DNA of 64,000 nucleotides from Alphaproteobacteria bacterium (GTDB taxonomy: Bacteria > Pseudomonadota > Alphaproteobacteria > GCA-2731375), in the NCBI GenBank assembly GCA_965232515.1, contig CBDDPY010000002.1, positions 3,648,001 to 3,712,000 on the forward strand, given 5' to 3'. Position numbers and translations under genes: made by a program. Under the pieces are notes generated by a model that had not been told where the DNA came from, searched no databases, and saw nothing but the letters and a program-made list of their open reading frames with translations. Positions within the stretch are counted from its first letter, which is position 1; every line of letters begins with the position of its first letter. Shown here piece after piece: positions 48,265 through 62,592 of this stretch.

Positions 48265-48321
48265 AATTCCGGTGACAGTAACCTTAATTCACTTCAAATT
48301 GAGGTTACTGTCACCGGAATT
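48265..48321. mobile_element. 57-bp non-autonomous element made of two 25-bp inverted repeats matching the ends of the Y1 transposase element
   Basis: AATTCCGGTGACAGTAACCTTAATT-cacttca-AATTGAGGTTACTGTCACCGGAATT; left arm 24/25 identical to 59819-59843. Confidence 0.8.
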
Positions 48322-48380
48322 AGCCGCCGCCGAGCGAGAAATTCCCCGTAACAGCACAAGCAACCTGCTATAACCCCGCC

Positions 48381-52082: not shown

Positions 52083-52091
52083 CTGTCGGCG

Positions 52092-53006
52092 CTATTCGGC
52101 GGCGACGGCGTGTTCCGCGGCCGCCGCCTCGAGCCGTCGGATCAGGCCCTGCGCCAGCTCGAGTCCGGCCAGCGACAGCGTGTCCTCGCCCCGGCTGACG
52201 ACGGCGATCGGAAAGCTCAGGTCCTGGGCCAGCGGCCGGCTGACGACGCCGCCCATGGCGCGGGCCACCTGCGCCGTGAACGGATCGACGACGGCGAGCG
52301 CGCCGGTGGCGCGGGCGATCGAGGCGACCGCGGGCACGGAATGGGAACTCAGCCGTGAACGGCGGCTCAGCCTGTCGGCCACATCGCCGTGCCGGCCGAA
52401 CGGATTGAGGAAGGAGCGCGGCAGGGTCACGAACTCTTCGTCGGCGACCTGATCGAGATCGAGCGGCCGCCGGTCCCCCGCCAGCGCATGCCCTTCCGGC
52501 ACCAGACAGACATAGGGCACGGCGGTTTCGTACAGCAGGTGCAGGCCGTCCAACGGGTGCAACGAACTCACCACCCCGACATCGGCCCGCTGCATCAGAA
52601 CGGCATCGATGATCGCCGTGTTGGTCCTGACTGTCACGGCGATCCTGAGGCTGTCCCGCGACCGGTGCAGGTCCCGCACCGCCATCATCAGGTCGCTGTG
52701 GGCGAAGACGGCGATCAGACCCAGGGTCAGTACGCCGTCCGCGGTGGTGCGAATCAGTTCGGCCGTCTCGCGCAGACGGTCGACGCCGATGAACATGCCT
52801 TCGACTGCTTCGTGAAAACGGCGCGCCTCGGGCGTGGCGACCAGGCCGCGCCCGGCGCGCGCGAACAGACGGAAGCCCACCGACGCCTCCAGATCGGCGA
52901 TCAACCGGCTGACGCTCGGCTGGGTGATGTACAGCAGCTTGGCGGCGCCCGTGATGGAACCGGTCCGCATGGTGGCCCGAAAGGCCTCGAGTTGACGTTG
53001 ATTCAC
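52092..53006 (-). CDS. LysR family transcriptional regulator
   Basis: RQLEAFRATMRTGSITGAAKLLYITQPSVSRLIADLE. Confidence 0.92.
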   Translation of the reverse strand: MNQRQLEAFRATMRTGSITGAAKLLYITQPSVSRLIADLEASVGFRLFARAGRGLVATPEARRFHEAVEGMFIGVDRLRETAELIRTTADGVLTLGLIAVFAHSDLMMAVRDLHRSRDSLRIAVTVRTNTAIIDAVLMQRADVGVVSSLHPLDGLHLLYETAVPYVCLVPEGHALAGDRRPLDLDQVADEEFVTLPRSFLNPFGRHGDVADRLSRRSRLSSHSVPAVASIARATGALAVVDPFTAQVARAMGGVVSRPLAQDLSFPIAVVSRGEDTLSLAGLELAQGLIRRLEAAAAEHAVAAE

Positions 53007-53036
53007 GACCCGCCCCGACGCCGATCATTCCTGATG

Positions 53037-53053
53037 CATAGGATTTAGCTATG
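53037..53053. promoter_or_regulatory. LysR recognition site (CATAG-N7-CTATG)
   Basis: T-N11-A palindrome in the AT-rich divergent promoter. Confidence 0.6.
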
Positions 53054-53179
53054 AATTAGCATAAATAACGAATTTGTTCTATGCAAAAGCCTTTGCTAGC
53101 GTCGAGACACCATGCAGTCTTCAACGCAGCATTGTGGCGGCGCGACCTGCGCCCTGCCGTTTCGGCGCGGCCTGCGGTG

Positions 53180-54439
53180 ATGTCGGCGGCGGACGGCCTG
53201 CACTGCATCGAAGATGCGCGCATCAGGGCCAAACGGCGGCTGCCGCGCATGATGTTCGACTTCATCGACGGCGCGGCCGGCGCCGAGATCGGCCACCGCC
53301 TCAATTGCAGCCACCTCGATCAGGTGCGCCTGCAGCCAAGCATATTGGTCAATGTCGAAGACCGGCGCCTTGGCCGCCCGTTCCTGGGGCATGACTGGGG
53401 CCTGCCGTTCGGGATCGCGCCGATGGGCATGTGCGACCTCGCCTGGCCGGGCGCCGACCGGTTGCTGGCCGCCGCCGCGGTCCGCCACGGCATCCCCCAC
53501 TGTCTGTCGACCGCCGCGTCCACCTCGCTGGAAGATGCGCGGCGGCTGGCCGGCGAGCATGCCTGGTTTCAGCTCTACGTCAAGGACACCGAAGACGCCG
53601 CCTTCGACCTGGTGCGGCGCGCCGAGCAGGCGGGCTACCGGCACCTGCTGCTGACCGTTGACGTGGCCAGCCTCGGCCCGCGCCGCCGCGAGCTTCGGCA
53701 TGGCTTCAAGGTGCCGTTCCGGCTCGGCGCCCGACAAGCCCTCGATTTCGCCCTCCACCCCCGCTGGTCGATCGAGACGCTGTGGCGCGGCGTTCCGACA
53801 TTCGCCAACTATCTGCCGCCGGACGACGGCAAGGGTGGCCGGCGCGGCCGGACCGACTTCGACCGCGGCAAACGCGGCGGCTGGATCGACTGGGCCTTCC
53901 TCGACAGGCTGCGCCGGCGCTGGCCGAACAAATTGATCGTCAAGGGCGTGCTGTCGCCGGACGAGGCCGTGCGGATCAGGGATGCCGGCGCCGATGCCGT
54001 CTACGTCTCCAACCATGGCGGCCGTCAACTCGACAGCGCGCCGGCCGCCATCGGCGCCCTGCCGCTGATCCGGCGGGCCGTGGGCGATGCCTATCCGCTC
54101 ATCTTCGATGGCGGCGTCCGCTGCGGCGAGGGCGTCGTCAAGGCCCTGGCGCTCGGCGCCGACTTCGTCATGCTCGGCCGTCCCTTTCTCTACGCCTTGG
54201 GCGCGGCCGGCGAGCAGGGGTTGGCGAAGATCATCCAGCTGCTCGCCGACGAGATCAGCCATACGCTGGCCCTGATTGGCCGGCCCGATGTCGCCGATAT
54301 CGACGGCGGCGTGATCGCCGCGCCGGCGATGGACCCGGTCCCGATGCGCCCGTTTCGGGGACCAGAGCGAACACCGTCGCCCGAAAAGCCCGTCGAACAT
54401 CGACAGCCAACGCCCGTGGCCCAGGGGAGCAAGCAATGA
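53180..54439 (+). CDS. FMN-dependent alpha-hydroxy-acid oxidase/dehydrogenase
   Basis: IAPMG, WFQLY, LTVD, IVKG, SNHGGRQLD and DGGVRCG; start position approximate. Confidence 0.9.
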   Translation: MSAADGLHCIEDARIRAKRRLPRMMFDFIDGAAGAEIGHRLNCSHLDQVRLQPSILVNVEDRRLGRPFLGHDWGLPFGIAPMGMCDLAWPGADRLLAAAAVRHGIPHCLSTAASTSLEDARRLAGEHAWFQLYVKDTEDAAFDLVRRAEQAGYRHLLLTVDVASLGPRRRELRHGFKVPFRLGARQALDFALHPRWSIETLWRGVPTFANYLPPDDGKGGRRGRTDFDRGKRGGWIDWAFLDRLRRRWPNKLIVKGVLSPDEAVRIRDAGADAVYVSNHGGRQLDSAPAAIGALPLIRRAVGDAYPLIFDGGVRCGEGVVKALALGADFVMLGRPFLYALGAAGEQGLAKIIQLLADEISHTLALIGRPDVADIDGGVIAAPAMDPVPMRPFRGPERTPSPEKPVEHRQPTPVAQGSKQ

Positions 54440-56157
54440 AAGTACGTGGCGGAACGATCCTGGCCCGCGCGCTGCGCGAAAAAGGCATCAAACAGGTCTT
54501 CACGCTCAGCGGCGGTTTCTGCAACCCCGCGCTCGAGGGCTTCATGACCTGCCAGATTCCGGTCATCAATTCGCCGCACGAGCAGGTCGCCGGCCATCTC
54601 GCCGACGGCTATACCCGGGTCACGCGCGAGCCGGCCGTCTGCCTGGTCGGACCCGAGGGTTTCGCCAACGCCTTACCGGCGGTCATGGAGGCCTATGGCG
54701 AGCGCTCGCCGGTCATCTTCATCACCGGTTCCAGCACACTGAAACGCAAGGGCAGCGGCGGCTTCAAGGAGATCGACGACGTCGCCATGGCGGCGCCCGT
54801 GACCAAGTACAGCGCCATGGTCACCGACGGCGACCGCATCTCCGAGTTCGTCGACCGTGCCTACAAGATCGCCACCGGCGGCTATCCCGGGCCGGTGCAC
54901 TTGAGCGTGCCCGTCGACATCATGTTCAGCTCTTTTGAGGAGGACGCCGGGCTGGCGGAACGGCCCTTCGACCGCACGCCGAAGCAGCCGCCGCGAGCCT
55001 GGCCCTGCCCCGACGACCTCGAAACCGTGCTCGAGTTATTGGCGAACGCCGACCGCCCCATGCTGATCGGCGGGCACGGCGTCTGGTGGTCGGGCGCCGA
55101 ACGCAAGCTCGAGGCCGTCGGCCGCGCCCTGAACATTCCGGTGTTCAACGTCCCCTATCACCAGAAGCTGCTGGGGGAGGACAGCGAGGCCTATATGGGT
55201 CTGGCCGACATCCATCAATATCCACCCGCGAAATTCGCGCTCGAGGCGTCCGATGTCGTGGTCCTCGTCGGCGGGCGGCTCGACAACCAGATGAACTTCG
55301 GCAACCCGCCGCTGTTTCCGCGCTCGACCCGGCTGGTCTGCGTCAATGGCTCGCACGAGGAAATCGAGCTCAACCGCGCCGCGGACCTGACGCTGCTCAG
55401 CGATCCCGGCGCCTTCTTCGACGCCGTCATGGACTTGCGCGACGGCGGCCAGTGGCGACTCGGCCGCGCGTGGTTCGAGACAAATCGCGACAAGCGCCGG
55501 CAATGGGTCGAGGAGACCCTGAACGGACTCGCGACGCCTGACCGGCCCGGTGAGAAGATGCATCCGCTGCAGCTGTCGCTGGACGTGCAGGCGGTGCTGG
55601 GTGAAGCCGACTGGCTCGTGTTTGACGGCGGCAACACGCATTTCTGGTCCGAGATCGCGGTCAACGTCGCCGGCTACCAGGGCAGGAAACTGCGCCGCAT
55701 CATGCATCCCGGCTCGTTCAGCCTGCTGGGCGTCGGCGTGTCGCTGGCGCTAGCCGCCAAGCTGACGCATCCCGAGGACAACGTCGTGCTGATCAGCGGC
55801 GACGGTGCCTTCCTCTCCGGCGGCCTCAGCATCGAGGCCGCCTTCCAGGAGCGCGCGCCGATCACGGTTGTTATCGACAACAATGGCGGTCTGGACTGCA
55901 TCTCGCAGCAGCAGGAGCGCCTGTTCGACAGCGGTCAGCACTTCGCCACCGACTTCCGCGACATCCCCTTCCACGGCATGTTCGAAGGCTTGGGCGGCCA
56001 CGGCGAACTGGTCGAGCACCGCGATCAGCTCGCGCCGGCGCTCAAGCGCGCGATGGCCAGCGGCAAGACCGCCTGCCTGAACGTCAAGACCCGGGGCGAG
56101 ATCAGCCCGATCGTTCTGGCGACCACCAACAAGCGCGACAAGGCGTCGATCGAATAG
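54436..56157 (+). CDS. thiamine diphosphate-dependent enzyme (AHAS-like / 2-hydroxyacyl-CoA lyase superfamily)
   Basis: FTLSGG, PHEQ (catalytic Glu), PGPVHL and GDGAF...DNNGG; ATGA overlap with the upstream gene. Confidence 0.9.
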   Translation: MKVRGGTILARALREKGIKQVFTLSGGFCNPALEGFMTCQIPVINSPHEQVAGHLADGYTRVTREPAVCLVGPEGFANALPAVMEAYGERSPVIFITGSSTLKRKGSGGFKEIDDVAMAAPVTKYSAMVTDGDRISEFVDRAYKIATGGYPGPVHLSVPVDIMFSSFEEDAGLAERPFDRTPKQPPRAWPCPDDLETVLELLANADRPMLIGGHGVWWSGAERKLEAVGRALNIPVFNVPYHQKLLGEDSEAYMGLADIHQYPPAKFALEASDVVVLVGGRLDNQMNFGNPPLFPRSTRLVCVNGSHEEIELNRAADLTLLSDPGAFFDAVMDLRDGGQWRLGRAWFETNRDKRRQWVEETLNGLATPDRPGEKMHPLQLSLDVQAVLGEADWLVFDGGNTHFWSEIAVNVAGYQGRKLRRIMHPGSFSLLGVGVSLALAAKLTHPEDNVVLISGDGAFLSGGLSIEAAFQERAPITVVIDNNGGLDCISQQQERLFDSGQHFATDFRDIPFHGMFEGLGGHGELVEHRDQLAPALKRAMASGKTACLNVKTRGEISPIVLATTNKRDKASIE

Positions 56158-56226
56158 GGAGACGGCCATGGCAACGGCATGCATCGCCCATCCGCCGACG
56201 TCGCTGCGCGAATCGGAGAAAGACCC

Positions 56227-56583
56227 ATGGCGGTAGTTTCGTCACACGTTCTCGACGCGGTCACGGGCGCCCATGCGGGCGAGGTCCGCGTGGAATGCCG
56301 GCGCCTTGCGGCCGACGGCACCCGGCAGACGATCTTCGACGTGCACAGCGGCCAGGACGGCCGCATCAGCGAGACCGTGGACCTGGATGTCGGCGAACCG
56401 GCGGACGTTTTCGAACTGGTGTTCTACAGCGGCGAATATTTCGCCCGTCAGCAGCTCCCGACAGCGGATCGCCAACCCGTACGCCGCGTCGTGATCCGCC
56501 TGGCGATGCCGGATCCGGAGGCCCGCTACCACGTCCCGGTCATCGTCTCGCCGCACGGCTACTCGGTGTGGTGGTCGGGCTAA
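56227..56583 (+). CDS. transthyretin-like / hydroxyisourate hydrolase-like protein with non-canonical C-terminus
   Basis: SSHVLD, DGRI and YHVP..SPHGYS; ends WWSG rather than YRGS. Confidence 0.85.
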   Translation: MAVVSSHVLDAVTGAHAGEVRVECRRLAADGTRQTIFDVHSGQDGRISETVDLDVGEPADVFELVFYSGEYFARQQLPTADRQPVRRVVIRLAMPDPEARYHVPVIVSPHGYSVWWSG

Positions 56584-56661
56584 GGCCGCCGGCCGGCGGC
56601 AGACAACAACGAGGCGGCGCGCAACGACGACCCGCCCGATAAGTCGACAGGAGGAAGCGAC

Positions 56662-57603
56662 ATGAGAATTCTCTATGCACTCTTTATCGGTCTGTTTGTC
56701 CTGCCCGCGTTTGCGACCGCGGGCGACTTTCCCGAGAAGAACCTGGTCTATCAGATCACCTTCGCGCCGGGCGGCGGTTCGGACATCCGGGCCCGCCAGC
56801 AGCAGCCGTTTCTGGAAGACGCCTTCGGCGTCAAGGTGCTGATCCAGTACAAACCCGGCGGCGGCGGCTCGCTCGGCTGGTCGAACCTGGTCAAGCAGAA
56901 AGCCGACGGCTATTTCATGTCGGGCATCAACATTCCGCACATCGTCCTGCAGCCGCTGGCGCGCAAGAACGCCGGCTATCAGACCGAGCAGATCCAGCCG
57001 GTGATCCTGTTCCAGCAGATCCCGTTCGGACTGACCGTGCTCGCGGATTCGCCGTTCCAGACGCTGGAGGACCTGGTGACGTTCGCGAAGAAAAATCCGG
57101 GCAAGGTCACCGTCGGCGGCTCGGGAAGCTGGGACGCGACCCATATCGCGCACCTGCAGTTCGAGCAGATGGCCGGCGTCAAGATGACTTACATACCGCA
57201 CAAGGGCGGCAAGCCGAAGCAGACCTCCCTGCTGGGCGGCCACACCATGGTCAGCTGGTTCGGCACCAGCGAATGGCTGCCCCATGGCGACAAGGTCCGC
57301 AATCTCGCGGTCGCCTCGGCCGAGCCCGTGCCGACCAATCCGGACCTGCCGACGTTCCGCTCCAAGGGCTATGACCTGCTGTCGTCCGTCTATCACGGCG
57401 TCGGCGTGCCCGCCGGCACGCCACCGGACGCCGTCGAGGCCTTGCAGAACGTCTTCCTGAAGATCGCCAACGACCCGGCGGTCCGAAAGCGCAAGCTGGC
57501 CGACGGCATCATCCCCATCGCCATGCCCGCCGCCGATGCGAAGACCCTGATCGAGGATCGCGTAACGGCCTGGAAACCGATCGTCGAGCAGTTCGCGAAC
57601 TAG
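56662..57603 (+). CDS. tripartite tricarboxylate transporter substrate-binding protein (TctC/Bug family)
   Basis: FAPGGGSDIRAR, KPGGGG, ADGY and PDLPT; signal peptide; aggagg RBS. Confidence 0.92.
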   Translation: MRILYALFIGLFVLPAFATAGDFPEKNLVYQITFAPGGGSDIRARQQQPFLEDAFGVKVLIQYKPGGGGSLGWSNLVKQKADGYFMSGINIPHIVLQPLARKNAGYQTEQIQPVILFQQIPFGLTVLADSPFQTLEDLVTFAKKNPGKVTVGGSGSWDATHIAHLQFEQMAGVKMTYIPHKGGKPKQTSLLGGHTMVSWFGTSEWLPHGDKVRNLAVASAEPVPTNPDLPTFRSKGYDLLSSVYHGVGVPAGTPPDAVEALQNVFLKIANDPAVRKRKLADGIIPIAMPAADAKTLIEDRVTAWKPIVEQFAN

Positions 57604-57615
57604 GCGATCAGCTGT

Positions 57616-57647
57616 GATGACGGCCGGCAAAAAGACCGGTCGTCATC
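57616..57647 (+). terminator. stem-loop after the binding-protein gene (mRNA stabiliser or terminator)
   Basis: gatgacggccgg-caaaaaga-ccggtcgtcatc; no U tract. Confidence 0.45.
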
Positions 57648-57711
57648 GCCAGCCCCGCCATCGGAGCGCACATGCGAGACCTCCGGCATCCACCCGGCCC
57701 GGAACTGGATT

Positions 57712-57760
57712 CCCCTCTCCCTTTCAGGGATTGGACGTCTGCGTCCAATTGCTGGGAGGG
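57712..57760. repeat. degenerate remnant of the multi-hairpin repeat with TTGGACG..CGTCCAA insert
   Basis: cccctctccc...attggacgtctgcgtccaat...tgggaggg. Confidence 0.55.
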
Positions 57761-57832
57761 CGTGTCTGATACGAAGCTGTTGCGCGGCCGAATTGCTGAG
57801 GCGCACGGCTCGTCCGAACGCGGCGATACGGC

Positions 57833-59812
57833 ATGACCCCCGGCCTCATCGACGGCGCGCTGCAGGCGATTGCGCTGCACCATCTGCTGTTGCTGTTTCT
57901 CGGCGCGGCGCTGGGCATTGTCTTCGGCGCGATCCCGGGTCTGACCGCGACCATGGGGCTGGCGTTGCTGGTGCCGTTCACCTTTACCATGGAGCCGGCC
58001 GCCGGGCTGCTGATGTTGGCCGGCATCTATGTCGGCGCCATGTATGGCGATGCCGTCCCGGCGATCCTCATCAACACGCCGGGAACCCCGGCCGCGATCG
58101 CCACAACGTTCGACGGCTATCCGCTCGCCCAGAAGGGCATGGCGCAGCACGCGCTGGTGACGGCCGCCTTCGCCTCCTGCATCGGCAGCCTTGTCGCGAA
58201 CGTCGTGCTGGCGACATCGGCGGAGCCGCTCGCTGACATGGCCCTCAAGTTCGGGCCGGCGGAATATTTCTGGCTCGGCGTCTTCGGCCTCACCATCATA
58301 TCGGTGCTCTCCAGCGGCAGCCTGCTGAAGGGTTTCGTCGCCGGCGCCATCGGTCTCCTGTTCTCGACCGTCGGCATGGCGACGCTGTCGGGCGACGTGC
58401 GTCTGACCTTCGATTTTCCCGAGCTTCAGGGCGGGATCGGCCTCGCCGGCGCGCTGATCGGTTTCTTCTGCCTGCCTGAAATTCTGTCGAACGTGATTGG
58501 CGGCCGTCGCGAGCATGTCTCGGCCAAACGCGTGCGGCCGAGCGCGGCGGTGATCGTCGACACCGTCGTCGACCTGGTCCGCCGCCCGGTCCTGCTCCTG
58601 CGATCGTCGATTATCGGCCTGGTGGTCGGGATCGCGCCCGGCGCCGGCGGCAACATCGCCAGCATGGTCTCCTACAGCGAGGCCACACGCTGGGAACCCG
58701 ACAACGAGGAGTTCGGCAAGGGCACGATCCGCGGCGTCGCGGCATCGGAAGCGGCCAACAGCGCCATGGCGCCGGGGTCCCTGATCCCGCTGCTCACGCT
58801 CGGTATCCCCGGATCGCCGCCGGCCGCGATCATCCTCGGCGCCCTGCTGCTACATGGCATGAAACCCGGCACCGAGCTGTTCTCCGCCCATGCCTCGGCC
58901 ACCTACGCCTTTATCGTCGGGCTGGCCATCGCGGCCGTCGCCGTGCTGGTTCTGGGCGTGCTCGGGTCGTTCGTCTACGCGCGGATCGTCAACATTTCCT
59001 CGCGTTCGCTGGCGCCGGCCATCCTGCTGATGACGGTGCTCGGCTCGTTCGCCATCCGTAACAACATGCTCGATGTCTGGGTGATGTTGCTGTTCGGCGC
59101 GCTGGGTTTCATCCTCAGCCGTCTGAACTACCATCCGGCGCCGCTGGTACTCGGTTTCATCCTGGGCCCCTATATCGAGGACGGCATCGTCCAGTCGACG
59201 ATGATCGGCGGCGCGTCGGGCAGCGTGCTGGCCTATATGGCGCTCCGGCCGATCAGCATGGTCTTGATCGCGCTGTGCCTGATTTCTGCGCTCTGGCCGA
59301 TCGTCGCCCGTCGGCTCAAGGCCGCCGAAGAACAGCCCGCCCCGGCATCCGGGCCGGCGCCGCGCGCCGGCGTCAACGCCGACCTGATCGTCGGCCTGGC
59401 GACGCTGGCGGTGGCCGCGATCGCCTACCTCAACACCCGCGACCTCAGCCACTTCGGCGGCCTGTTCGTCGATTTCTGCGCGACCGCGCTGGCCGTGCTC
59501 GGCCTTCTGACGACCGCCAAGAGCTGGCTGAAGCCCGAGCATGCACGGTTCTTTGCATCGGCCGCGGAAGGCCGCCGCGTGCTCGCCGGCATCGGCATTC
59601 TGGCGCTCTATTTGCTGCTGATCCCCTATGCCGGCTTCCTGCTGGCGAGCGTGTGCTTCTACTTCGTCATGCACACATCGCTGCGCCCGGAGCCCGACGC
59701 GGCCGGCGCGCTCGCCGCCAGCGCCGGCCTCGCGCTCGCGGTGACGGCGTCCCTATACCTGCTCTTCCAACACCTCCTCGGCGTCCCCCTGCCGCCTGGA
59801 ATTTGGGGCTGA
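57833..59812 (+). CDS. tripartite tricarboxylate transporter permease, TctA with fused TctB-like domain
   Basis: GAIPGL, NTPGTP, TTFDGYPLA, EAANSA and LTLGIPG; about 4 extra C-terminal TMs ending LGVPLPPG. Confidence 0.88.
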   Translation: MTPGLIDGALQAIALHHLLLLFLGAALGIVFGAIPGLTATMGLALLVPFTFTMEPAAGLLMLAGIYVGAMYGDAVPAILINTPGTPAAIATTFDGYPLAQKGMAQHALVTAAFASCIGSLVANVVLATSAEPLADMALKFGPAEYFWLGVFGLTIISVLSSGSLLKGFVAGAIGLLFSTVGMATLSGDVRLTFDFPELQGGIGLAGALIGFFCLPEILSNVIGGRREHVSAKRVRPSAAVIVDTVVDLVRRPVLLLRSSIIGLVVGIAPGAGGNIASMVSYSEATRWEPDNEEFGKGTIRGVAASEAANSAMAPGSLIPLLTLGIPGSPPAAIILGALLLHGMKPGTELFSAHASATYAFIVGLAIAAVAVLVLGVLGSFVYARIVNISSRSLAPAILLMTVLGSFAIRNNMLDVWVMLLFGALGFILSRLNYHPAPLVLGFILGPYIEDGIVQSTMIGGASGSVLAYMALRPISMVLIALCLISALWPIVARRLKAAEEQPAPASGPAPRAGVNADLIVGLATLAVAAIAYLNTRDLSHFGGLFVDFCATALAVLGLLTTAKSWLKPEHARFFASAAEGRRVLAGIGILALYLLLIPYAGFLLASVCFYFVMHTSLRPEPDAAGALAASAGLALAVTASLYLLFQHLLGVPLPPGIWG

Positions 59813-59818
59813 ACCGCT

Positions 59819-60616
59819 AATTCCGGTGACAGTAACCGTAATTATCGCCGACCGGTGCGGCGCTTGGTCTTTGCCGCCGGCTTTTTCTTCGCCTTGGGCG
59901 CCTGCTTCGGTTTCGGGCCGGGCTTGCCGCGGACGAACGAGCGGTCGAACCGCCGTTCCAGACGCCGGACGAAGGCCGTGGCGCCGAACGGCCGACCGGT
60001 GCGCGTGCCCATGCGGATCGCCTCGACCGCGTCGTCGTCCGACGGCTCGGCGAGATAAGCGGGCCAGTCCGGCACCATCTCCAAGAGCGGCGCGACGCGC
60101 ACCAGCTCGTCGTCCCGGCCGGCGAGATGCGCGCGCGCGCTCGACCACTTCCAGTCCCGCGCCCGGCGTTTCAGGCGCGCACGCACCGGATTGACCTCGA
60201 CATAGCGGGCGCAGGCGAGCGTGTGCGCCTCATCCATGGGCACGGAATAGAACCGGTCCTGCCAGAGATGCCCCTGCCAACCCTCTCGCCCGTTGATGTG
60301 CCGCGTATAGCGGCGGTGCGTCTCGCCCAGCGCGGCGCGCAGGCCGTCCGCATCGGACGGCACCAGGACCAGGTGCACGTGGTTCGGCATCAGGCAATAG
60401 GCCCAGACCTCGACGCCGACCTCTTCGCAACGCTCGGCCAGCAGTGCGCGATAGAGCGCGTAGTCGTCGTCGTCGAAAAACGTCTCCAGCCCGCGGTTGC
60501 CCCGCTGGGTCACATGGTGCGGATATCCCGGCACCACCACGCGCGCGATTCGAGCCATGCGGTCATGCTGGCACGCCGCATCGAGCCCGTCAATTAAGTA
60601 TACCGTCCCCGCAATC
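59819..60616 (-). mobile_element. HUH/Y1 transposase element bounded by 25-bp imperfect inverted repeats
   Basis: Left IR AATTCCGGTGACAGTAACCGTAATT; right IR (reverse complement) GATTGCGGGGACGGTATACTTAATT; 18/25 match. Confidence 0.75.
59842..60558 (-). CDS. RAYT-like HUH (Y1) tyrosine transposase
   Basis: PHHVTQRGN, AYCLMPNHVHL (HUH), GHLWQDRF, YVEVNPVRA and WKWSS. Confidence 0.92.
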   Translation of the reverse strand: MARIARVVVPGYPHHVTQRGNRGLETFFDDDDYALYRALLAERCEEVGVEVWAYCLMPNHVHLVLVPSDADGLRAALGETHRRYTRHINGREGWQGHLWQDRFYSVPMDEAHTLACARYVEVNPVRARLKRRARDWKWSSARAHLAGRDDELVRVAPLLEMVPDWPAYLAEPSDDDAVEAIRMGTRTGRPFGATAFVRRLERRFDRSFVRGKPGPKPKQAPKAKKKPAAKTKRRTGRR

Positions 60617-60621
60617 CAGCT

Positions 60622-62313
60622 CTAGTCACGGCGTTTGAAATCGAAGCGGCACTTATTCATGCGGCCCTCGATCCTGGCGGCGTCGGTCGCCAGGCTGGCG
60701 GTCACGCTGAAGTTTTCGTTGTGTTCGTTGAACCGCAAATCGATTGTGCCGTCCTCGACAACCTTGCCCTCGACCAATCGCTCCGGCGTCGCCGTAAACT
60801 CGCCGTCACGTCCTATCCTGAGGCTGACCGCGCCGTTTCGGGCGATCAATTCAAGGTCGAAGAAGACCGGTACGGAATTGCCCAATGTGGTCAGCACTTT
60901 GCAGGTAAACGACGCCTTCCAGCGACCGTCATAGCGGCTCAGATCGACGACTGCGGACCGTGGCGCCAAAAGCGCGACCTTCGGGTCTTCGTCGGCCGAC
61001 GTCGACCGCGCATCGGCTGGCGGCGGTTGACTGGCCCGCGCCCGGGCCAGGGCCGCATACCGGCCCTGCGGATAGGCGTCGAGATAGGCACGGTAATCGG
61101 CCGGGCTGCGGCTGTTCTTGACCTGATTCCAAAATGCGTCCTCGGCGGCGTGAGCGGCCAGGCGCCGTTCGGATTCGCGTCTGACCTTATCCGCCAGCGC
61201 CTGCGCCTCGATCGCGTGCCGGCCGTTTGGATAGCGTTGCAGGTAACTCTCGTAGGCCGTTGCCGTGCCGACGCCCGCGGCCGCCTGCCAGGCCGTATCG
61301 TCCGCGGCGCTGGCCGCGTCCAGGCCGGCCCGACGCGTGGCGGCAAGCTGGGCAAAACGACCCCGCGGATAGGTTTCCAGATAAGCGGCGAAGTCGGCCG
61401 GGTTCCTGCTGTCCTTGATCGACGCCCAGAACGCCAGCTCGACGGCGAGATCGGCGTCGGGCTGCGCAGCCGCCGGCGGCGCGGCTTCCGCCGGCGCGGG
61501 CGGGTTGGTCTTGGGGACGAACAGAAACGCGCCGCCCTCGTGGTCGGCGCGGCGGATGTCGGAATATTGCGGCGTCTGGTCGGCGTTGACCACGACCTGC
61601 CGGCTGACCTGGCGGAACAGAGAATTGCCGTCGAGGATGTCGTCGTTTTCCTGCAATGTGCGCAGGAACGCGCCGGCGAACACCGAGTGCCCGTCGGCGC
61701 CGCCATCGACAACCGGTTCGAGGCCGCCGGAGACGATGGCCGTGCGCGAGCGGCGCTCGGCCAGACGCCGTAACCAGGCCTCACGCTCGCGACCGGTCGC
61801 CGGAACCGCCTGCGCGGCCCGTACCAGCGTGCCGGAATAACAGCTGTCGGCGACAACCATGACATGGCGGGCGCTCATGCCCTTCAGCCGACGGGTCAGG
61901 GAATCGTTGGCGATCCAGTTGAGATCGTCGTCCTCGTCCGCGTCCACCGGCAGCCAATAGCCGGTGCCGGTGGCACGGTCGAGCGTGCCATGGCCGGCAT
62001 AATAAACCAGCAGGTTGTCCTGCTCCGTAAGCTCGGCGCGCAGCTTGTTCACGCTGCGCACGATGTCGTCGCGCGTCGCATTGACCAGCAGGGTGACCTG
62101 GAAACCGTATTTCTCGCGCAAGAGTTCGGCCGTCGCCTGCGCGTCATTGACCGCGGTCTCCAGGTCGGGCAGCGTCCGGTAGTCGTTGTTCCCGATCACG
62201 AGCGCGTGGTAGCGGCCGAAATCCAGATCGTCGATCGCCGCTCGCGTTTCGGCGCCGCCAGCCAGCAACGCCACGATAACAAAATAAACACCAATCAATC
62301 GACTAATAAACAT
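60622..62313 (-). CDS. exported caspase-family (peptidase C14) protein with helical repeats
   Basis: ALVIGNNDY, YYAGHG (His), ADSCYSG (Cys), GHSVF; three W..AYL..YP.G repeats; signal peptide; start could be TTG at 62319. Confidence 0.88.
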   Translation of the reverse strand: MFISRLIGVYFVIVALLAGGAETRAAIDDLDFGRYHALVIGNNDYRTLPDLETAVNDAQATAELLREKYGFQVTLLVNATRDDIVRSVNKLRAELTEQDNLLVYYAGHGTLDRATGTGYWLPVDADEDDDLNWIANDSLTRRLKGMSARHVMVVADSCYSGTLVRAAQAVPATGREREAWLRRLAERRSRTAIVSGGLEPVVDGGADGHSVFAGAFLRTLQENDDILDGNSLFRQVSRQVVVNADQTPQYSDIRRADHEGGAFLFVPKTNPPAPAEAAPPAAAQPDADLAVELAFWASIKDSRNPADFAAYLETYPRGRFAQLAATRRAGLDAASAADDTAWQAAAGVGTATAYESYLQRYPNGRHAIEAQALADKVRRESERRLAAHAAEDAFWNQVKNSRSPADYRAYLDAYPQGRYAALARARASQPPPADARSTSADEDPKVALLAPRSAVVDLSRYDGRWKASFTCKVLTTLGNSVPVFFDLELIARNGAVSLRIGRDGEFTATPERLVEGKVVEDGTIDLRFNEHNENFSVTASLATDAARIEGRMNKCRFDFKRRD

Positions 62314-62592
62314 TAACAATCCTTAACATTCCATTCGATACTGGATCCATACTACTGGATAATTTGGAGAGTTTGCAGCACTTATCTTGATTTATACTTG
62401 ACGATATCTGCCTTTAAATTTACAGACGCGCTGCCGCGACGGCGGCAGAAGGCCGGTTCCGCGCATCGTTCCGATCCGGATTTCGACACTTCCGGAACAA
62501 TCGAAGCGGCTTGCATTTCCGCCGATTTTTTTCCTTGACGTCTCTGTGCATGGGGTTGTTCCGCGATCTGCCCCGGACCTACCCCCCCTTTT

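Follow-up and report, generated by a model that had tools for sequence, protein, structure and literature searches.

A TIRtron-type locus of an alphaproteobacterium and its dispersed family of inverted arm pairs

Introduction

What kind of system is formed by a single-copy gene for a RAYT-like HUH/Y1 enzyme that is tightly enclosed by two inverted repeats, with gene-less repeats scattered elsewhere in the genome? The question is raised by a locus at 59819..60616 of a 64,000-nucleotide (nt) stretch of DNA (the window, whose coordinates are used below unless contig C2 is named) from an Alphaproteobacteria bacterium. The window is part of contig C2 of the 7.39-Mb genome; the G+C content of C2 is 65.5%, and the chromosome is given as 7.3 Mb. 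A first-pass annotation had seen in this locus a candidate new system, an autonomous transposon with a non-autonomous partner, whose two ends would pair in single-stranded DNA (ssDNA). The analysis presented here leads to another answer. The locus very likely belongs to the TIRtron class, and the whole set of observations is probably best explained by a resident single-copy TIRYT gene whose product would act in trans on REPIN-like pairs of inverted arms.

The names TIRtron and TIRYT were introduced for a RAYT-like Y1 gene located between terminal inverted repeats (TIRs) (Di Nocera, 2013; PMC3733652). Most TIRYTs were subsequently placed in subclass 2.1 of the TnpA-Y1 proteins, which was equated with Bertels group 1 (Quentin, 2018; PMC6006769). 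These two papers, as well as Bertels (2017; PMC5581495) and Messing (2012; PMC3479197), are cited here from excerpts of their text. Since the class was named in 2013 and reclassified in 2018, the novelty of the system cannot be upheld. In the literature searched, both terms are confined to PMC3733652, PMC6006769 and the preprint of the latter, in agreement with the earlier remark that TIR-flanked Y1 genes were known from bioinformatics only.

The gene, its product and its two arms

The TIRYT gene occupies 59842..60558 on the minus strand, where it is the only long open frame between the two neighbouring genes, and encodes a RAYT-like HUH/Y1 enzyme of 238 aa. It was identified by a Pfam Y1_Tnp match (E 3e-11), by motifs and by fold. 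The motifs are PNHVHL at residues 58-63 (NHVH at 59-62), WQ at 99-100, YVEVNP at 119-124 with the tyrosine Y119, WSS at 138-140, and a basic tail; YVEVNP fits Y-x3-NP but is not letter for letter YIELNP or Y[IV]HLNP. In an alignment of 85 sequences (82 distinct), H62, Y119, P124, W138 and S140 are invariant, and H60, N123 and S139 are conserved in at least 90%. Two homologues from related genomes that are otherwise full-length and well conserved (L014 and L015) have the first His of the HUH motif replaced, giving PNRVHL and PNQVHL, and these enzymes may be inactive or altered.

The AlphaFold (AF2) model of the protein has a confidence (pLDDT) of 90.6 and a pTM of 0.84. The top match among solved folds is 4er8_A, the E. 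coli TnpA-REP bound to a repetitive extragenic palindromic (REP) sequence (E 2.6e-8, TM 0.70 on the target, 156 columns), followed by the TnpA proteins of IS608 and ISDra2. A sequence search also recovers 4er8, at E 2.5e-4, in an alignment that brings both the HUH motif and the Tyr into register. Neither of two NCBIfam cut-offs is reached: the score is 69.5 bits for REP_Tyr_transpos (cut-off 80) and 22.1 bits for transpos_IS200 (cut-off 55). The C-terminal part is harder to place. Residues 130-216, modelled separately, form five short helices (pLDDT 85.7), for which Foldseek gave no match at E <=0.001 and VIA a best Z of 2.8; Pfam assigned residues 127-238 to no family at E <=10, and a protein atlas search of the C-terminal part returned only unnamed or Y1 clusters, under 0.9.

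Two 25-nt arms enclose the gene. The left, stop-proximal arm, AATTCCGGTGACAGTAACCGTAATT, is located at 59819..59843 on the plus strand and has the core GGTGACAG; it represents the type that is amplified in the genome. The right, promoter-proximal arm is located at 60592..60616 on the minus strand (reverse complement GATTGCGGGGACGGTATACTTAATT), and its core GGGGACGG begins 52 nt before the ATG. Compared as inverted 25-mers, the arms match at 18/25 positions and differ at 7/25. The stop codon, 59842-59844, shares the last 2 nt of the left arm. Each core fits GGGGWSAS at 7/8 positions, neither of them exactly. No GTAG- or GT[AG]G-footed hairpin was found at either flank of the gene, and Rfam, run over the whole window, reported only a tRNA and the signal recognition particle RNA, with no match at the arms.

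The neighbouring genes are a TctA-TctB fusion at 57833-59812 on the plus strand and a Peptidase_C14 gene at 60622-62319 on the minus strand; both products being identified, no tnpB stands beside the Y1 gene. In the fusion, TctA and TctB of a tripartite tricarboxylate transporter are joined in a single 659-aa frame, the final codons of which lie a few bases from the left arm. Thus, the layout reported by the first-pass annotation is accurate: a RAYT-like gene within 25-bp inverted repeats, a stop codon that runs over the left repeat, inverted-repeat flanks in place of GTAG REPs, and no tnpB. Its statement that the repeats are not self-hairpins is correct for the single arms, whose DNA folds have energies of -2.7 kcal/mol (left) and 0.0 kcal/mol (right); it needs qualification because the left arm is self-complementary at 20/25 positions and a pair of such arms makes a 25-bp hairpin.

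The similarity of the arms to each other is, taken alone, only modestly unusual. A match of 18/25 was reached in none of 500 shuffles of the flanks, but in 16/500 equally spaced pairs of 65-nt segments from the GC-rich window. The arm pair is accepted as real because the sequence and position of the arms are conserved in homologues, and not because of the 18/25 match by itself.

Homologous loci and their flanks

A scan of species-representative genomes confirmed at least 577 relatives of the protein. The best 80 of these, at 53-75% identity, come from metagenome-assembled genomes (MAGs) and a few isolates and carry the labels Alpha-, Gamma- and Deltaproteobacteria, Planctomycetota, Nitrospirota, Acidobacteriota and Armatimonadota. 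The closest relatives among the matches listed are from alphaproteobacterial MAGs. Two MAGs of Candidatus Accumulibacter (L033 and L067) have homologues at 61-62% identity, and TIRYT genes of A. phosphatis are listed in PMC3733652. Together with loci from related genomes, the best 80 form a set of 96 rows, 92 of them distinct.

The arms recur beside these genes. The exact core GGGGWSAS was found upstream, in forward orientation, at 42/90 loci, 31 of which have it 48-62 nt before the start (opposite-orientation control, 6/90), and downstream, in inverted orientation, at 31/84, with 25 at 5-30 nt past the stop (control, 5/84); 18/82 loci have it on both sides. For the relaxed core GGKGACRS the numbers are 56/90 upstream (38 at 48-62 nt; control, 9/90), 39/84 downstream (32 at 5-30 nt; control, 13/84) and 28/82 on both sides. 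Thus, the check proposed in the first-pass annotation, that homologue flanks should carry the inverted repeat, had a positive outcome, and a third to a half of the homologous loci are without a recognisable arm of the GGGGWSAS/GGKGACRS type. Some homologues have other arm sequences, such as GTGACGTA in L004 and L008. Upstream arms aligned by their cores yield the consensus AATTCCGGGGACACnATACTTAATT at 48-62 nt upstream. The arms in the window, 52 nt before the start and ~17 nt past the stop, are both within the homologue peaks.

The type of arm (...ACAC versus ...ACAG) tracks the protein tree: among 50 labelled rows (35 rows were unlabelled), 8 changes are required, compared with a mean of 13.8 for shuffled labels, and none of 500 shuffles did as well. 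Relatedness alone can yield such a result, so it shows only that the arms are inherited with the gene. At two loci (L002 and L010) full hairpin pairs flank the gene on both sides, and at a third (L003) upstream, a REPtron-like layout. One contig of Thermoguttaceae carries three near-identical copies of the gene (L071, L083 and L099), two of which are separated by ~5 kb; a recent duplication of the whole TIRtron seems to have taken place in that genome.

Dispersed arms and the gene-less pair

A gene-less arm pair, or mini-element, is found in the window at 48265..48321. It has no strand of its own and consists of arms at 48265-48289 (plus) and 48297-48321 (minus) around a 7-nt loop, which together form a perfect 25-bp DNA hairpin of -24.4 kcal/mol. 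The first-pass annotation had described it as a gene-less copy of the two ends of the locus. The pair is there, but both its arms are copies of the left arm, at 24/25 and 23/25 positions, and not of the right one, and it is one of many. Just to the right of it, at 48322-48360, the sequence AAATTCCCCGTAACAG resembles an arm with the core deleted and may be a remnant.

A census of contig C2 with the left-arm 25-mer, to which the left arm is identical, at <=5 mismatches revealed 65 arm units at 32 loci, including 22 adjacent inverted pairs in '+-' order. The locus architectures are '+-' (14), '+' (5), '++-' (4), '+-+' (3), '--' (2), '-' (2), '+--' (1) and '++' (1). Among the 16-mers of the left flank, the commonest, TTCCGGTGACAGTAAC, has 35 occurrences in the chromosome; none of the right-flank 16-mers occurs more than twice, and no dispersed copies of the right-arm type were found at <=5 mismatches. 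The left-arm type accounts for all dispersed units, and only this stop-proximal type has been amplified. The right arm is the older, ancestral type that is seen across phyla, and the left arm and the 65 dispersed units are a derived type (...GTAACCnTAATT). A cluster at C2:1703730-1703834, just after a stop codon, has two tandem units of the ancestral 'GTATAC' type directly before a pair of the amplified 'GTAACC' type; it looks like a transitional form linking the two arm types.

Within the units, positions 6-16, CGG[T/G]GACAGTA, are invariant across the census, which is partly so by construction, the units having been chosen by similarity. Folded as ssDNA, the 22 pairs have a median energy of -26 kcal/mol, each of them as a ~25-bp hairpin. 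The two arms of one pair differ less from each other (2.0) than do arms of different pairs (3.2), a contrast that none of 10000 permutations reached, and 20 deviations from the consensus are common to both arms of one pair. The spacers are far more variable than the arms, many of them being variants of CGAAC/CGCG-type loops. Open frames that span the repeat loci are not gene-like, the highest G+C content at third codon positions (GC3) among them being 0.73, compared with 0.80-0.88 in real genes.

With the census and the homologues in hand, one can ask whether the neighbourhood of gene and repeats is accidental, that is, whether the repeat family belongs elsewhere and one of its units lies beside the Y1 gene by chance. 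The frequency with which control segments reach 18/25 and the position of the right arm outside the dispersed family are what one would expect in that case. We regard it as highly improbable. With 65 units over 7.3 Mb, the position of a perfect census 25-mer across the stop codon of the one Y1 gene that is intact counts against coincidence; homologues from many phyla have the same core in corresponding positions; and the cluster at C2:1703730 joins GTATAC-type units to a pair of the amplified type.

The co-occurrence of arm pairs and gene was assessed in 41 related genomes with the pattern GGKGACAS-N20-50-STGTCMCC, which is blind to other arm types. This genome has 22 pairs, followed by G014 with 17, G013 with 11, G002 with 10, G020 with 7, G011 with 5, G034 with 4 and G017 with 3; six genomes have 1 and 27 have 0. 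With the pattern reversed as a control, no genome yielded more than 1 match. At least three pairs are present in 7/23 genomes with a match to the protein and in 1/18 without one; the genomes being related, no statistic is attached to this comparison. Arm pairs are found mostly where the gene family is present, yet most gene-bearing genomes have few or none. The proposed co-occurrence of mini-elements and gene is therefore borne out in its direction and not as a rule.

History of the locus

A related strain carries the whole locus at the same site, with 25 substitutions over 1045 nt (~2.4%). It is represented by a 175-kb contig from run X4, which is labelled RNA; the label was not taken as a sign of transcription. 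A second run, X19 (raw poly-A RNA reads), gave 0 reads and carries no weight with regard to expression. Of the 25 substitutions, 14 are inside the gene, and 13 of these are synonymous; the single non-synonymous one is G236S, in the basic tail. Thus, the gene is under purifying selection. The arms are without substitution. The two strains also differ by one indel, the only one in the locus: immediately behind 59819, the related strain has 9 extra nt, which repeat part of the left arm's outer tip.

In a genome of the same genus (G001, 81% complete), there is no close orthologue of the gene. This genome has a 39%-identical family member with its own arms, and 0 pairs. The mini-element is absent at the orthologous site, where the flanks are 90-93% identical and the intergenic region is short; the intergenic alignment is too poor to define the point of insertion. 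In place of the region 52090-60615 of the window (~8.5 kb, with TctC, the TctA-TctB fusion, other frames and the TIRtron), G001 has 265 nt with two unrelated palindromes. This replacement was considered as an empty site of the TIRtron and rejected, as homology resumes ~5 nt past the stop codon of the neighbour, where coding conservation ends, and it is uninformative about mobility.

The genome also contains a second member of the family, 57-59% identical, at C2:5932554-5933157, outside the window. It is broken, with residues ~25-48 lost and a change of frame, so that one intact copy of the Y1 gene remains. With its arms, this second TIRtron spans C2:5932495-5933205, and an unrelated open frame ends just upstream. 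Its arms, GGGGACAC at 54 nt upstream and GGGGACAT, inverted, downstream, keep the canonical spacing and are without further copies in the genome. In the upstream arm, the outer tip forms a tandem duplication, with CAGTTAGAAT present twice.

Similar stutters of the arm tip are seen elsewhere. Three dispersed pairs (C2:3147602, 3439347 and 4326493) have a tandem partial copy of the outer 11-13 nt. Among the homologues, two or more cores in the same orientation and <=30 nt apart are present in 16/96 rows, often as partial copies of the outer end (L006, L011, L012, L022, L024, L044 and L085 are among these loci). The outer boundary of the stutters is fixed, and the inner one varies from just after GGTGAC to ~12 nt past GGGG. 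An attempt to map a cut site from the stutters was dropped, as the inner boundaries differ between loci. The stutters give a hint of DNA processing at the arm tip.

These data bear on the idea that the gene and its two arms are an autonomous transposon with ends paired in ssDNA, of which the mini-element is a deletion derivative. Much of the family at large agrees with it. The sequence and position of the arms accompany the gene across phyla, and arm type tracks the protein tree, for which relatedness alone suffices; the distribution over Alpha-, Gamma- and Deltaproteobacteria, Planctomycetota, Nitrospirota and Acidobacteriota, at 53-75% identity among the matches listed, is patchy; one Thermoguttaceae contig has its three near-identical copies, and this genome its second, broken TIRtron with arms of its own. 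Group 1 also has the highest duplicate rate among RAYT groups 1-5, with some copies on plasmids (excerpts of PMC5581495). In the genome studied, however, the idea is quite unlikely to hold. There is a single intact copy; the ends match at 18/25 positions only, and the right-arm type is without dispersed copies; the centres of mini-elements are unlike gene-proximal sequence; and the gene is found at the same site in a strain diverged by ~2.4% and has host-like codon usage (GC3 of 0.86, compared with 0.88 and 0.80 in the adjacent genes). In addition, pairing is much less favoured for arms separated by 750 nt than for those separated by 7-19 nt. Thus, of the first-pass proposal, the autonomous element finds no support here, and the pairing of ends in ssDNA is retained for close arm pairs, which fold well, and not for the arms of the gene itself, which are ~750 nt apart, mismatched and poorer in hairpin formation.

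The promoter-like site and the setting of the repeats

Between the right arm and the gene, on the minus strand at 60565..60593, lies a promoter-like sequence, TTGACG-N17-CAGCAT, which ends 6 nt before the ATG. The TT of its TTGACG is formed by the final two bases, that is, the inner end, of the right arm. A comparable geometry is seen in homologues. The pattern TTGAC-N17-19-TAnnnT is present in 12/38 distinct upstream regions that have an arm at 48-60 nt (L011, L027, L032, L038, L046, L060, L061, L062, L075, L088, L089 and L091). It starts 17-23 nt after GGGG, and in 11/12 the second hexamer ends 6 nt before the start. Shuffled controls have a mean of 0.06 such sites, and 0/1000 shuffles reach 12. 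A strict consensus promoter scanner reported 0 sites in 59700-60750; it is the geometry in homologues, and not the scanner, from which the window sequence is read as a promoter. This geometry suggests leaderless or near-leaderless mRNAs across the family, and makes the upstream arm a possible operator.

In many homologues, the upstream arm adjoins a promoter-like site with constant spacing, which is also what would be expected if the enzyme had been domesticated and moved nothing, the arms serving as an operator and as 3'-end, terminator, stabiliser or nucleoid sites of the host, as proposed for REPs. The strong purifying selection on the gene points the same way, as does the position of the repeats: by a crude call of neighbour orientation, the 29 loci with two called neighbours comprise 18 convergent, 11 co-directional and 0 divergent ones. 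Co-option of RAYTs by the host is, moreover, argued for in the abstract of PMC5581495. As a full account, domestication nevertheless appears rather unlikely. It would leave the origin of 65 near-identical units unexplained; the genome of the same genus has none of them and an empty site; no T-run was found after the hairpins; and the catalytic HUH and Tyr are conserved, with H62 and Y119 invariant in the 85 sequences. The two accounts, domestication and a resident enzyme that works in trans on arm pairs, are compatible and do not exclude each other.

Comparison with known systems

The locus closely resembles published TIRtrons. In the excerpts of PMC3733652, the repeats share a GGGGWSAS core at similar distances from the coding sequence; TIR families are moderately abundant in some genomes, as pairs or clusters; and most gene-bearing genomes have few or no TIR pairs. 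Likewise, the locus has inverted repeats that are unrelated to GTAG REPs, similar core distances and one arm over the 3' end of the gene, and its repeat family is dispersed as single units, pairs and clusters. It differs from that description in that both its cores are one position off GGGGWSAS and only the stop-proximal arm type is amplified; the promoter geometry, the polymorphism between strains and the site that is empty in a sister species are features documented here.

By its motifs and length, the protein fits TnpA-Y1 subclass 2.1, or Bertels group 1. Table 1 of PMC6006769 gives for subclass 2.1 a median of 238 aa, the motifs NHVH, W[EQ] and YIELNP / Y[IV]HLNP, and a C-terminal SS motif. 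The protein shares the 238 aa, NHVH, W[EQ], Y-x3-NP and the C-terminal SS, and the locus shares the low copy number and the lack of GTAG REPs. The excerpts also describe a helix-turn-helix-like tail (Bac_DnaA_C, HTH_23, HTH_28) in subclass 2.1, an assignment that was not reproduced for the 238-aa protein, and state that REP-like sequences were not found near 2.1 genes. According to the excerpts of PMC5581495, group 1 is rare in Alphaproteobacteria, and the 16-mers that flank its genes are repeated to a moderate degree, with a mean of 12 copies. Here, by contrast, the flanking 16-mer is present 35 times, the arm pairs make strong hairpins, and the closest relatives among the matches listed are alphaproteobacterial MAGs.

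With REPtrons, the locus has in common a single-copy Y1 gene, inverted copies of a repeat, and extragenic dispersal largely as hairpin-forming inverted pairs. The nearest solved fold is that of the E. coli TnpA-REP (4ER8), and at L002 and L010 the gene stands between full hairpin pairs. The differences are substantial. TnpA-REP is a monomer requiring a 5' GTAG (Messing, 2012; PMC3479197), whereas no 5' GTAG/GTGG tetranucleotide is present here and one unit by itself does not make a stable hairpin. With its score, the protein stays below the REP_Tyr_transpos cut-off; it has a C-terminal extension of ~100 aa, and the arm sequence is conserved across phyla instead of co-diverging with each host. 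Classical RAYTs (subclasses 2.2 and 2.5) are recognised by GT[AG]G-footed REPs and by a score above that cut-off, and neither is seen at this locus. With TnpA of the IS200/IS605 elements (IS608, ISDra2), the protein shares the HUH/Y1 core fold, and single-strand 'peel and paste' is the presumed model. In contrast to those elements, the locus has no subterminal imperfect hairpins with guide sequences and no tnpB, is present in a single copy, and encodes Y-x3-NP instead of Y-x3-Q.

Discussion

The explanation that we prefer, a resident TIRYT gene acting in trans on arm pairs, can be put as follows. The HUH metal site and Tyr119 would nick and rejoin ssDNA at the arms. As natural substrates in this genome we envisage the 22 inverted pairs whose arms lie close together: such a pair, once exposed as ssDNA, as may happen on the lagging-strand template, would fold to a ~25-bp hairpin with the GGKGACAG core in the stem. 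The pairs would behave as REPINs, which were reportedly described by Bertels and Rainey in 2011, being gene-less and spread in trans by the resident enzyme, and the gene with its own flanks would no longer be mobile. Of the parts of this explanation, the role of the arm pairs as substrates of the enzyme is one that we lean towards. At the promoter-proximal arm, whose inner end lies over the -35-like TTGAC, the protein could repress its own, possibly leaderless, transcript; such autoregulation through the upstream arm is proposed tentatively. Movement of the whole unit is unsupported in this genome and probably occurs in other lineages, as the Thermoguttaceae copies indicate.

Several observations weigh against this explanation. 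The variability of the spacers does not fit simple copying of whole pairs, unless extra assumptions are made, and neither a target-site duplication nor a common target sequence was seen in the flanks of the 32 loci. The link between gene and pairs is loose: 16 of the 23 related genomes with a match to the protein have fewer than three arm pairs, and G034 (77% complete) contains 4 pairs and yet gave no hit with the family profile. Given that the gene is multi-copy in Thermoguttaceae, a resident and immobile gene is a reading specific to this genome. The helix-turn-helix tail expected of subclass 2.1 was neither confirmed here by Pfam, Foldseek and VIA nor excluded. Finally, no bench experiment on any TIRYT was found in the literature searched, in which both papers that use the terms are bioinformatic.

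The same data allow a bolder reading, which we consider doubtful: a mode of single-strand transposition that is undescribed so far for Y1 enzymes. In this mode, a long, perfect two-arm hairpin with GGKGACAG in the stem would be used without a guide tetranucleotide at the hairpin foot and would be cut and rejoined at the outer tip of the arm. The stutters, which recur in the family and differ between the two strains at this locus, would be the traces of abortive cycles, and the promoter-proximal arm would also be an operator through which the protein acts on its own leaderless mRNA. If it is true, one 25-nt sequence found across phyla would serve both as a transposition end and as a regulatory site.

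In summary, the locus is a further example of the TIRtron class and no new kind of system. The statement on absent REP-like sequences in the excerpts of PMC6006769 is qualified by the hairpin pairs found here. The class is large, with at least 577 relatives in many phyla, and the locus is a convenient case for bench study. It offers a single intact gene under clear purifying selection, a defined family of moderate size with 22 hairpin pairs and one arm type, a right arm that represents the ancestral type and, not having been amplified, can serve as a natural specificity control, a sister species with an empty site, and a polymorphism between strains exactly at the arm tip. It thus sharpens the questions of whether these enzymes recognise a hairpin or a duplex, at which position they cut, and whether they regulate themselves.

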